From a virus (taxonomy: Duplodnaviria > Heunggongvirae > Uroviricota > Caudoviricetes), in IMG/VR virus record IMGVR_UViG_2563366879_000001, positions 1 to 34,760 of that record: a stretch of DNA of 34,760 nt. One strand, given 5' to 3'. A model generated the notes under the pieces. It was not told the origin of the DNA. It saw only the letters and a list, made by a program, of their open reading frames with translations, and did no database searches. Position 1 is the stretch's first letter. Every line of letters begins with the position of its first letter. The position numbers and the translations under genes were made by a program. This document shows positions 5,743 through 8,700 of the stretch, piece after piece.

Positions 5743-8700
5743 ATGACCACTGTGAATAAAAAGTTAAAAAAAACTGCATCTGGCGCGATTACATGGTCGG
5801 TAATTGTTACCCAGATATTATCTCCAGTTTCTCTTTCTTTGATCCCAGCAAACAGTTTTGCATCATCTGGTAATAAAGATGTTACGCAAACTTATGCCAG
5901 CGATGAGCATGCAAATAAAGTGGCCTCATTTGCAGCAAGTGCAGGTCAGAGCCTGGCGAATAATAATGCAAGTAGTTTTGCTGTAAATACTTTATCAACT
6001 CAGGCGACAAAAGAGGTCGTCGACTGGTTGCAACAATATGGCAATGCGCGCATCAAGCTTAATGTCGATGATTCTTTTTCCTTGAAGGATTCATCATTCG
6101 ACTTTTTATATCCATGGCTGGATACTCAGGATTATGTGCTATTCAGTCAGACATCACTACATCGTACTGATGACCGAAATCAGACCAATATTGGTTTGGG
6201 GATTCGTCATTTCACTCCTGATAACGCAATGTTGGGTGCGAATGTTTTCTATGATTACGATTTAAGTCGCAGTCACTCTCGTGCAGGTTTTGGGGTTGAG
6301 TACTGGAGAGATTATTTCAGGCTTGGTGTAAATACCTATTTTGGTTTGTCTGACTGGAAGAACAGTCGGGATATTGATGATTATCTGGAAAGACCCGCAA
6401 ATGGCTGGGATTTTTCTGCTGAAGGATGGCTACCTGCTTATCCGCAATTAGGGGCATCCATTCAGTTTGAAAAATATTATGGTAAAAATGTCGGGTTATT
6501 TGGAAGCGATAATCTGCAGGAAAACCCTTACGCAGTTACTGGGGGAATTTCTTATACACCAGTTCCTCTGATTAAGTTTTCTGCACAGCATAAGCAAGGA
6601 CAGAGCAACGTTCACGATACAACCTTTGGTGTTGAGTTTAATTATCGCCCGGGCGTTTCCCTTGCTGAACAGCTTAGCAGTGACAATGTTGCTGTTATGC
6701 GAGAAGTCCAGAACCGGCGTTATGATTTTGTTGAACGAAATAACAACATTGTTCTGGAGTACAAGAAGAAGCATGCACTGAAAATCAGTTTGCCAGAGTC
6801 TGTTCAGGGGGAGGGGGAATCAATCATCCCTGTAACACTGACAATCAACAATGCTAGTGGTGGTATCAAGTCTGTACAGTGGAATGATAGTGCATTCACT
6901 GCGGCTGGCGGCAAGATCAGTGGAAATGGCACATCATGGCAGATCACTTTACCGGCTTATAAAAGCGAAGGTGTAAATTCGTGGAATGTTGGAGCCACAG
7001 TACAGGATAACAGAGGCAACGTTTCCAACTATGCCGTGATGAATATTAGCGTTACTGATAGTGGTGTCTCGACGGCTGATTCGTCTTTTACACTGGATGG
7101 AGATTCGTCGCCGACGATCTCTGCTGATAGCCAATCCACTTATCCAATAGTATTAAGCCTGAAAGATAGTAACGGTAAGGCATTAACCGGACTGGCTGAT
7201 GACATTGAAATGTCAGTGGAATTTACAGCAGATAGCAATAGTGCTCGACAGCGTGAAACGGTAACTGCTCCGTCATTAGGCGCGGTAGAGGAAATCTCTG
7301 CTGGGGTATATCGCTCTGTTCTGACTGCTGGTTCGCAGGCTGGTACGGTACGTGTAACTGCAAAAGTTCAGGGAAAAACCTTTACTCTGAATATTAAGCA
7401 GGCAGCCATTACTGATAGTGATGTATCGACAGCTGATTCGTCTTTTACACTGGATGGAGATTCGTCGCCGACGATCTCTGTTGATAGCCAATCCACTTAT
7501 CCGATAGTATTAAGCCTGAAAGATAGTAACGGTAAGGCATTAACCGGACTGGCTGATGACATTGAAATGTCAGTGGAATTTACAGCAGATAGCAATAGTG
7601 CTCGACAGCGTGAAACGGTAACTGCTCCGTCATTAGGCGCGGTAGAGGAAATCTCTGCTGGGGTATATCACTCTGTTCTGACTGCTGGTTCGCAGGCTGG
7701 TACGGTACGTGTAACTGCAAAAGTTCAGGGAAAAACATTTACTCTCAGTATTAAGCAAACAGCAGCAACAGAACCTGATTCTGAGGTCAGTGCTGTTTTA
7801 ACCGCTGCACCAGCAGAACAGGTAGTTGGTTACAATATCAATCTACAACTGGCAGTGAAGGATTCACAAGGAAATGCAATCACTGGTGATAACACTCTGA
7901 GCTTTTATGCTCTTAACCAGGCAGAAGGAGTCGAGTTTGGGACTGTAACGGAAAAAGACGGTGTCTATAGCGCGACAGTAACTTCAAAACGAGCTGGTAA
8001 GATTACTATCGGTGTTAAATCTGATAGTCATGATTTCTCAGGTGTTAAGAAAGAAATCACCTTTATTGAGGACCGGCAGCAGGTTACATTCTCTCAGTTT
8101 GAAGCCAGCCAAAATAATGCATTGGCTGATGGAAAACAGAGAAATATGGTAACTGTAAGCCTTGCGGACCGTTTCGGCAATGTTGTTCCTGGTTATGCTG
8201 TCACATTGTCTTTACCAGCAGGGATAACTCAAGTTGGTGGTGAACATGCTGTTTCAACTGACGAAAATGGTAATGCTATTTTTGCGTTAATAAGCTCCAC
8301 TCCGGGGTCTTACGTGATTACAGCTCATGCTGGTTCTCAGATGTCTACTGAGTTAACAGTGACCTTTGCATCAAATATGACCGGAGCTTCACTGTCACTG
8401 ACGCCTGAAAGCAGTAGTTTAATTTCCAATATTCCTGCTAATGGTAAGGATGCAGCGGTATTAGATGTGCAGCTGACAAATACGAATGCGTCGGTCAATG
8501 GGCAAAAGATTCAGCTCATCACCTCATCTGAAGGATTATCTATACCAACAAATATCGTGACTGATTCAACAGGGCATGTTTCTGTTCCGCTTACAACGGT
8601 GAAAGCTGGTGAGTACACGGTGACTGCACGGGTGACTGACGGTTCCCATAGCGTGGAATCTGGCAGCGTTAAGTTAACTTTTGTGCCCGATGTTGCTTCT

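Follow-up and report, generated by a model that had tools for sequence, protein, structure and literature searches.

Length-variable surface proteins built from highly identical tandem domains have been described as Periscope Proteins (Whelan et al., 2021, PMC8201768; reviewed in PMC9704523), a class within which inverse autotransporters are counted (PMC9704523). Here we analyze a stretch of 34,760 nucleotides (nt) from a viral sequence record (IMG/VR, IMGVR_UViG_2563366879_000001, positions 1 to 34,760; hereafter the window), whose DNA is that of Escherichia coli, and in it a prophage gene for an inverse autotransporter adhesin that carries two adjacent, near-identical 357-nt copies of one immunoglobulin (Ig)-like domain. 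The reading we favor, with a probability of roughly 0.85, is that of an old in-frame duplication which, through in-register exchange or slippage, now exists as arrays of one to four domains whose units evolve in concert.

The adhesin resembles Periscope Proteins in being a putatively surface-anchored single chain with long, high-identity tandem repeats whose number varies among close strains. The published screen looked for repeats longer than 50 residues with at least 80% identity, and then for number variation in long-read genomes (PMC8201768). Here the repeat is 119 amino acids (aa) long, with 95% protein and 96.4% DNA identity between copies, and among close strains whose proteins are at least 90% identical we find one to four units on an otherwise identical haplotype. 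A preliminary description of the window had called copy-number change a known route of surface-protein variation, which agrees with this published class, although the array is short (one to four units) when set against classic Periscope members with up to 46. Cluster 53 of the screen, three E. coli proteins listed as "YeeJ" (UniProt A0A192CME6), has two to three repeats of 119 aa, the domains Invasin_D3 and IAT_beta, and repeat similarities of 0.94 for protein and 0.98 for DNA (PMC8201768). Judged by these listed properties and not by the sequence of A0A192CME6, cluster 53 is very probably the prophage adhesin under an automatic name, because the 119-aa Invasin_D3/IAT_beta listing fits and K-12 yeeJ has no tandem repeat at all. 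The UniProt-derived label is misleading for this gene: YeeJ was considered as its identity and rejected, K-12 YeeJ (b1978) being 30% identical by BLASTP and 2339 rather than 1302 aa long. The domain-number variation described here thus belongs to a known class and is probably already catalogued there, but the cluster 53 row gives two to three repeats where we find one to four, and it lacks the prophage location, the chimeric units and the concerted evolution documented below.

Two inverse autotransporters are close in design. YrIlm/YrInv of Yersinia ruckeri (5ldy) has a passenger of almost identical Ig-like (Invasin_D3) domains (PMC6714894, PMC9704523). It is from a different species, our repeat unit aligns to it weakly (5ldy, E 0.019), and the adhesin scores 305 bits against the NCBIfam YrIlm cutoff of 750. 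For YrIlm, a prophage context is not known to us. FdeC (EaeH) of E. coli is built like the adhesin, with Ig-like domains strung behind a barrel that lacks LysM, and its structure 4e9l is the best solved match of the repeat (E 4e-7 with one unit as query and 2e-17 with the full-length protein), but the resemblance is slight (65 bits across a fragment of 420 residues; 19% overall between FdeC and the prophage protein of strain EC958; PMC8541385). FdeC is chromosomal and is counted separately from the adhesin gene in strains JJ1886 and EC958, which the main E. coli survey of inverse autotransporters scores only for fdeC, iatA and iatB; the survey does not mention phage, and the adhesin gene falls outside the six inverse autotransporters it tabulates (PMC6714894). 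Nor does the adhesin reach the curated cutoff of any named NCBIfam inverse-autotransporter family (bits/cutoff: IatC 393/2400, intimin 330/1400, SinH 317/999, Ilp 312/1125, Inv 287/710, YchO 272/508). A literature search found no paper specifically on this gene beyond those cited here.

The adhesin gene and its repeated domain

The gene and its parts are as follows, in window coordinates.

5743..9651, + strand: inverse autotransporter (type Ve) adhesin gene, 1302 aa, holding the repeat (open reading frame, ORF; Pfam IAT_beta E 5e-101, Big_1, Invasin_D3)
5911..6744, + strand: outer-membrane beta-barrel translocator, aa 57-334 (Pfam PF11924, 338 bits, cutoff 22.3)
6766..7050, + strand: first, membrane-proximal passenger domain, aa 342-436, unrepeated (match to intimin fragment 6tqd)
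7051..7407, + strand: repeat unit 1, a 119-aa Invasin_D3-type Ig-like domain with "first-unit" markers at its 5' edge and "non-last" markers at its 3' edge
7408..7764, + strand: repeat unit 2, 13 nt and 6 aa different from unit 1, with "later-unit" markers at its 5' edge and "last-unit" markers at its 3' edge
7765..9648, + strand: six mutually divergent passenger domains, aa 675-1302 (domain-by-domain Pfam scan; 19-35% pairwise identity)

The repeat consists of two in-frame 357-nt copies forming a 714-nt array at 7052-7765. When 7052-7408 is aligned directly to 7409-7765, 13 of the 357 columns are mismatched (96.4% identity) and none is gapped, which bears out the near-identical tandem pair of the preliminary description; the coordinates given there, 7054-7767, denote the same array in a phase that starts 2 nt later, an arbitrary choice in any tandem repeat. 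Tandem Repeats Finder places the array at 7052-7757 (period 357, 2.0 copies, 97% matches, 0% indels, score 1349) and reports no other long-period array in the window; for a repeat of such length and identity a chance origin is excluded. Read in codon phase, the units run from 7051 to 7407 and from 7408 to 7764, 119 aa each with six residue differences (95% identity), whereas all other pairs among the nine domains into which we cut the passenger are 19-35% identical. The two copies are thus indeed far closer to each other than any other pair of Ig-like domains in the protein. Their mismatches are not spread evenly: 10 of the 13 lie within the 52 columns of the two edges (1-23 and 329-357; binomial P = 8e-7), and the longest perfect run is 166 nt (columns 96-261).

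Each 357-nt unit is one Ig-like domain, the second after the barrel in the case of unit 1, because each alone passes the Invasin_D3 gathering threshold of 33 bits (unit 1, 41.6 bits; unit 2, 38.9 bits) and aligns to single domains of the solved structures 4e9l (FdeC), 5ldy and 5n40; the match within each unit spans residues 8-110 or 8-112. The rest of the protein is that of an inverse autotransporter, with a PF11924 barrel at the N-terminal side and a Big_1/Invasin_D3 Ig-like passenger at the C-terminal side (whole-protein scores 185 bits for Big_1 and 182 bits for Invasin_D3), and the identical gene in RefSeq is labelled "inverse autotransporter beta domain-containing protein". Barrel residues 97-341 match the solved barrels of invasin (4e1t, E 1e-73) and intimin (4e1s, E 8e-63), and the passenger is predicted to lie on the cell surface. 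The first passenger domain, scanned alone against Pfam, gave no match, while residues 342-441 match intimin fragment 6tqd (E 9e-10). Five of the six distal domains are Big_1/Invasin_D3-like, and the C-terminal one found no family match in the domain-by-domain Pfam scan.

Unit number and unit anatomy in public genomes

The adhesin gene occurs in 561 of 5426 complete E. coli genomes (~10%), including the sequence type 131 (ST131) reference strains EC958 and JJ1886, and at the common locus the coding sequences differ in length by exact multiples of 357. Among complete genomes we find the gene with one unit (3552 nt; strains 1442, UPEC-455U and TUM14771), with two units (3909 nt; Z1323HEC0475, B1172, GN25 and one ST131 isolate, as in the window) and with three (4266 nt; JJ1886, TUM2826 and EC958). 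A four-unit form of 1540 aa has 27 member sequences in the protein database, and its DNA is found in a draft assembly with matching prophage context. Proteins of 1183, 1302, 1421 and 1540 aa are alleles of one gene. To count units systematically, we queried with a gene lacking both units, so that the span of each record gives its unit number; in a systematic sample of 60 of the 562 matching records, 36 had three units (one of them also with IS2 and one 13 nt shorter), 13 had two, eight had one and three were truncated. The claim that the site is prone to recombination and copy-number change is borne out by these counts, with one, two and three units at one locus in complete genomes and four in a draft. 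All one- to four-unit alleles read to the same stop codon, the unit being 3 x 119 nt; a simple-sequence contingency locus of the on/off kind was considered and discarded, a change of one unit shifting no frame.

Outside the array, the ST131-type alleles with one, two, three and four units are identical, both within the gene (3195 nt) and across the 5 kb upstream of it (8.2 kb in all). Four unit states thus sit on an otherwise identical haplotype, and unit number must therefore change much faster than point substitutions accumulate.

The units themselves record how this happens. We extracted all units in register and listed their 43 variable columns. Columns 13, 17 and 23 have G, C and G in the first unit and, within the 99% lineage, A, A and A in later ones; at columns 329, 338, 340, 350, 351 and 356, units that are not last have C, G, A, G, G and C and the last has A, C, G, A, A and A, a 3' rule that holds in all three allele lineages. 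One-unit alleles, again in three lineages, combine a first-unit 5' edge with a last-unit 3' edge, and the middle units of three- and four-unit alleles combine a later-unit 5' edge with a non-last 3' edge. The crossover can even be bracketed: the single unit of strain 1442 agrees with unit 1 of JJ1886 as far as the column-63 marker, and with unit 3 from the column-263 marker onward. Such mosaic units are what in-register unequal exchange or slippage would be expected to leave behind.

Three side observations concern the gene and its surroundings in other strains. A three-unit gene interrupted by IS2 (span 5602) is found among records H93 (NZ_CP157672.1), H140 and H148-H150, and an ST131 isolate (locus L010, 9098-11514) has an ISEc23 (IS66-family) element between the adhesin gene and its convergent neighbor, a hydrolase gene. 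Escherichia albertii NBRC 107761 has an 80%-identical relative of the N-terminal 237 residues, truncated at the end of a 23.8-kb contig; our scan of one genome per species returned only this truncated relative and a 357-nt contig (see below), and so gives no cross-species picture.

Concerted evolution and its alternatives

We envisage the following course. A stalk domain of the Ig-like Invasin_D3 type, lying second from the barrel, would have been duplicated in tandem and in frame long ago. The long perfect identity between copies, up to 166 nt in the window, would let them misalign in register during replication or recombination, and the misaligned copies would undergo unequal sister-strand exchange or slippage, each event adding or removing exactly one 119-aa domain with the frame intact, to leave one, two, three or four domains. 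Repeated rounds, gene conversion, or both would hold the interiors of the units in any one allele close to identity, while the outer half-edges of the array, which cannot be exchanged, would have diverged. In E. coli, tandem repeats of a few hundred bases gain and lose copies both by RecA-dependent unequal exchange and by RecA-independent replication slippage, pathways that may also act at this array. As a speculation, the exo, bet and gam genes of the intact ST131 prophage might promote such exchanges, genes that are missing from the prophage of the window. The Chi site GCTGGTGG is absent from the adhesin gene, with a single site in the window at 14327, and Chi-stimulated recombination is therefore not indicated.

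Because invasin, intimin and FdeC have rod-like passengers made up of Ig-like domains, each added unit should push the six distal domains farther out, by roughly the length of one domain. The preliminary description had linked copy number to the length of the adhesin stalk: the step itself holds, being exactly one Ig-like domain whose units pass Invasin_D3, and the effect on the stalk would follow by analogy with these relatives. A change in reach may matter for adhesion, for shielding by capsule or O-antigen, or for immune exposure and recognition.

The alternative that survives best, though we think it quite unlikely, is that the two-copy state of the window is an assembly artefact, the true array having at least three units, or one, and the assembler having taken the minimal two-unit path. 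The array does behave badly in assemblies, as the preliminary description had warned. Middle units have almost no unique sequence, so that two units give an assembler its minimal path through any longer array and arrays of at least three units can collapse to two. In the one-genome-per-species scan we met a contig of 357 nt, CAXORL010000232.1, that is exactly one repeat period, spans the internal junction and differs from JJ1886 by one mismatch; it is filed in a Moraxella osloensis assembly and is probably a short-read assembler (de Bruijn-graph) loop for an array of at least three units, combined with E. coli contamination. Fragments whose contigs measure 356 and 220 nt likewise fall in the three-unit protein cluster, as do partial proteins, 633-640 aa long, that break off within the array. 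Moreover, no complete genome matches the first 12 kb of the window at more than 98.6%, so the source strain is not independently represented. Against an artefact, a gene identical to that of the window over all 3909 nt (100%) and with both units is present in the complete genome of strain Z1323HEC0475, the exact protein is recorded on 70 contigs, and two-unit alleles are common in complete genomes (13 of the 60 sampled).

Both short-read assemblies and reference mapping are unreliable at the array, which may also affect variant calls. A phage-therapy case report that mapped reads to EC958 lists three indel/substitution "mutations" in EC958_1349, a "prophage-associated invasin-like protein", and tabulates them beside the repeated or paralogous genes gadA/gadB, Antigen 43 and upaH (PMC8541385, Table 2). 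EC958 carries a three-unit allele (locus L015, 8118-12383), and if this locus tag is the adhesin gene, the reported changes may be repeat-induced artefacts or real changes in unit number.

The preliminary description had favored another explanation, a single duplication that happened recently in this strain or among its near relatives, with the similarity of the copies reflecting little elapsed time. The contrast between 96.4% nucleotide identity for the pair and 19-35% protein identity for the other domains is what such an event would give, but three observations make it very unlikely. First, the window shares its repeat phase and the junction-specific 3' edge markers with the GN25/TUM14771 lineage, from which it is set apart by 152 differences over the 1886 sites of the right flank (~8%). 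Second, the junction of the window array departs from each of the outer edges, in 3 of 23 columns and in 7 of 29, where a fresh duplication would match them. Third, synonymous changes that separate lineages are common to both copies within an allele. In B1172 the unit interiors are identical (0 of 305 differences) and yet differ from the window units at 14-17 sites, while the flanks of the two alleles differ at 19 of 1309 and 5 of 1886 sites. Import of the B1172 unit from the 94%-identity lineage was considered and found no support: its interiors are 10 sites from unit 1 of GN25 and 14-17 from the window units, and B1172, distant from both, therefore represents a third type. Lineage-separating synonymous changes common to the copies within an allele indicate concerted evolution, and we read the near-identity of the units as continuing homogenization of an old duplication, and neither as recent origin nor as the work of protein-level selection alone.

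That last possibility, in which selection on the protein sequence of each domain keeps copies alike without recombination and copy variants are rare accidents, draws on the good conservation of the unit protein sequence between lineages but is hardly credible, since synonymous sites are homogenized too (in whole-unit codon comparisons of B1172 with the window the changes are mostly synonymous, 12:5 and 12:7), four copy-number states share one 8.2-kb haplotype, and recombinant units are mosaics with identifiable crossover intervals.

Several points weigh against homogenization of an old array as we have drawn it. The copy number of the window itself is not certifiable from its sequence alone, and the four-copy allele is known from a draft of unstated sequencing technology. 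The copy-number classes in public genomes are phylogenetically non-independent, most three-copy records probably being ST131. Homogenization is non-uniform: the 94% lineage shows less of it, with 10 differences between its two units across 305 interior sites. As to structure, a rod-shaped passenger is suggested by solved relatives only (invasin, intimin and FdeC), an AlphaFold2 single-sequence model of aa 342-777 being unusable (pLDDT, the predicted local distance difference test, 48; pTM, the predicted template modeling score, 0.24).

A cargo block in a mosaic prophage

At every locus we fetched, the adhesin gene lies in a lambdoid prophage, between the gene for replication protein P and ybcN/ninE/ybcO/rusA/Q. 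The features that flank it in the window are these.

5489..5742, + strand: AT-rich intergenic region, presumed to hold the promoter (guanine-plus-cytosine, GC, content 34% in 5500-5999)
9663..9683, strand not assigned: GC-rich hairpin, terminator-like on both strands, between the adhesin and hydrolase genes (pattern scan, consensus match only)
9688..10731, - strand: convergent alpha/beta-hydrolase gene (BD-FAE/esterase-like; Pfam BD-FAE E 1.5e-44)

Lambdoid prophages carry cargo genes, or morons, of which bor, lom and stx are examples, and the low-GC block here has the anatomy of such cargo. It lies between conserved phage genes, has a distinct base composition (34-46% GC at 5500-11000, with 40-46% for the hydrolase gene, against 52-54% in the adjacent phage genes) and brings its own terminator-like hairpin, which forms nine pairs with seven GC pairs on the + strand and eight pairs on the - strand. 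Like known morons, then, it is an independent low-GC insert, in the P-nin region, with a terminator-like hairpin and a predicted host-surface protein; unlike them, the adhesin gene finds no match by megablast among 50,697 deposited phage genomes. A literature search for inverse-autotransporter morons returned nothing specific. Promoter-like hexamers lie upstream of the gene at 5657-5684 and 5694-5721, and the scan counted no more hexamer sites there than in shuffled sequence. The hydrolase gene accompanies the adhesin gene at most loci. It is absent from the 94%-identity lineage (strains GN25 and TUM14771), and the two cargo genes are therefore separable.

The adhesin gene of Z1323HEC0475 is 100% identical to that of the window, and those of ST131 and the other matching E. 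coli records listed are 99.2-99.3% identical. The left side of the window prophage (1-5488) is degraded: the integrase is in two pieces (ORFs 1-492 and 588-1127), and an IS3-family fragment (1665-2132) and an IS110-family ISEc21 transposase (2456-3532) replace the immunity/recombination region with exo/bet/gam and the repressor. The O gene is also shortened, to 298 aa from 339 aa elsewhere. The same degraded arrangement is found at the B1172 locus (L005) and at one further locus (L006), and the best complete-genome match of the first 12 kb, at only 98.6%, is of this B1172 type. In ST131 strains the region is intact, with exo, bet and gam beside the adhesin gene, and it is intact in the Z1323HEC0475 prophage as well, unlike that of the window, despite the identical adhesin. 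The history of the cargo allele is therefore not that of the backbone, and the prophage is a mosaic.

Two further repeats lie elsewhere in the window. Within the gene for phage replication protein O (3894-4790; Pfam Phage_rep_O), 19-23-nt tandem repeats at 4212-4324 (consensus TTTACCCGAATCAGGTAAAAAAG) look like the origin iterons that lambdoid phages have inside O. A 36-nt tandem repeat (28965-29040; 2.1 copies, 97% identity) lies inside an 865-aa ORF at 27430-30027, which by position and size we take to be the tail tape-measure gene, and would be another in-frame site of variable length.

A further-reaching scenario can be drawn, one that we consider unlikely: a temperate phage would deliver a length-adjustable adhesin to pandemic extraintestinal E. 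coli (ST131), with "periscope" switching between one and four domains at a pace that counts within a host or an outbreak, perhaps accelerated by the Red genes, and with length tuning the exposure of the tip beyond capsule and O-antigen. The locus would gain interest only if adhesion, immune recognition or the interplay of phage and host proved to depend on unit number. For the present, our analysis provides a corrected interpretation of the duplication, an allele series, its prophage context and a warning about assemblies and variant calls at the array, and it shows clearly, on a small scale, how the domains of a Gram-negative adhesin can vary in number and evolve in concert.

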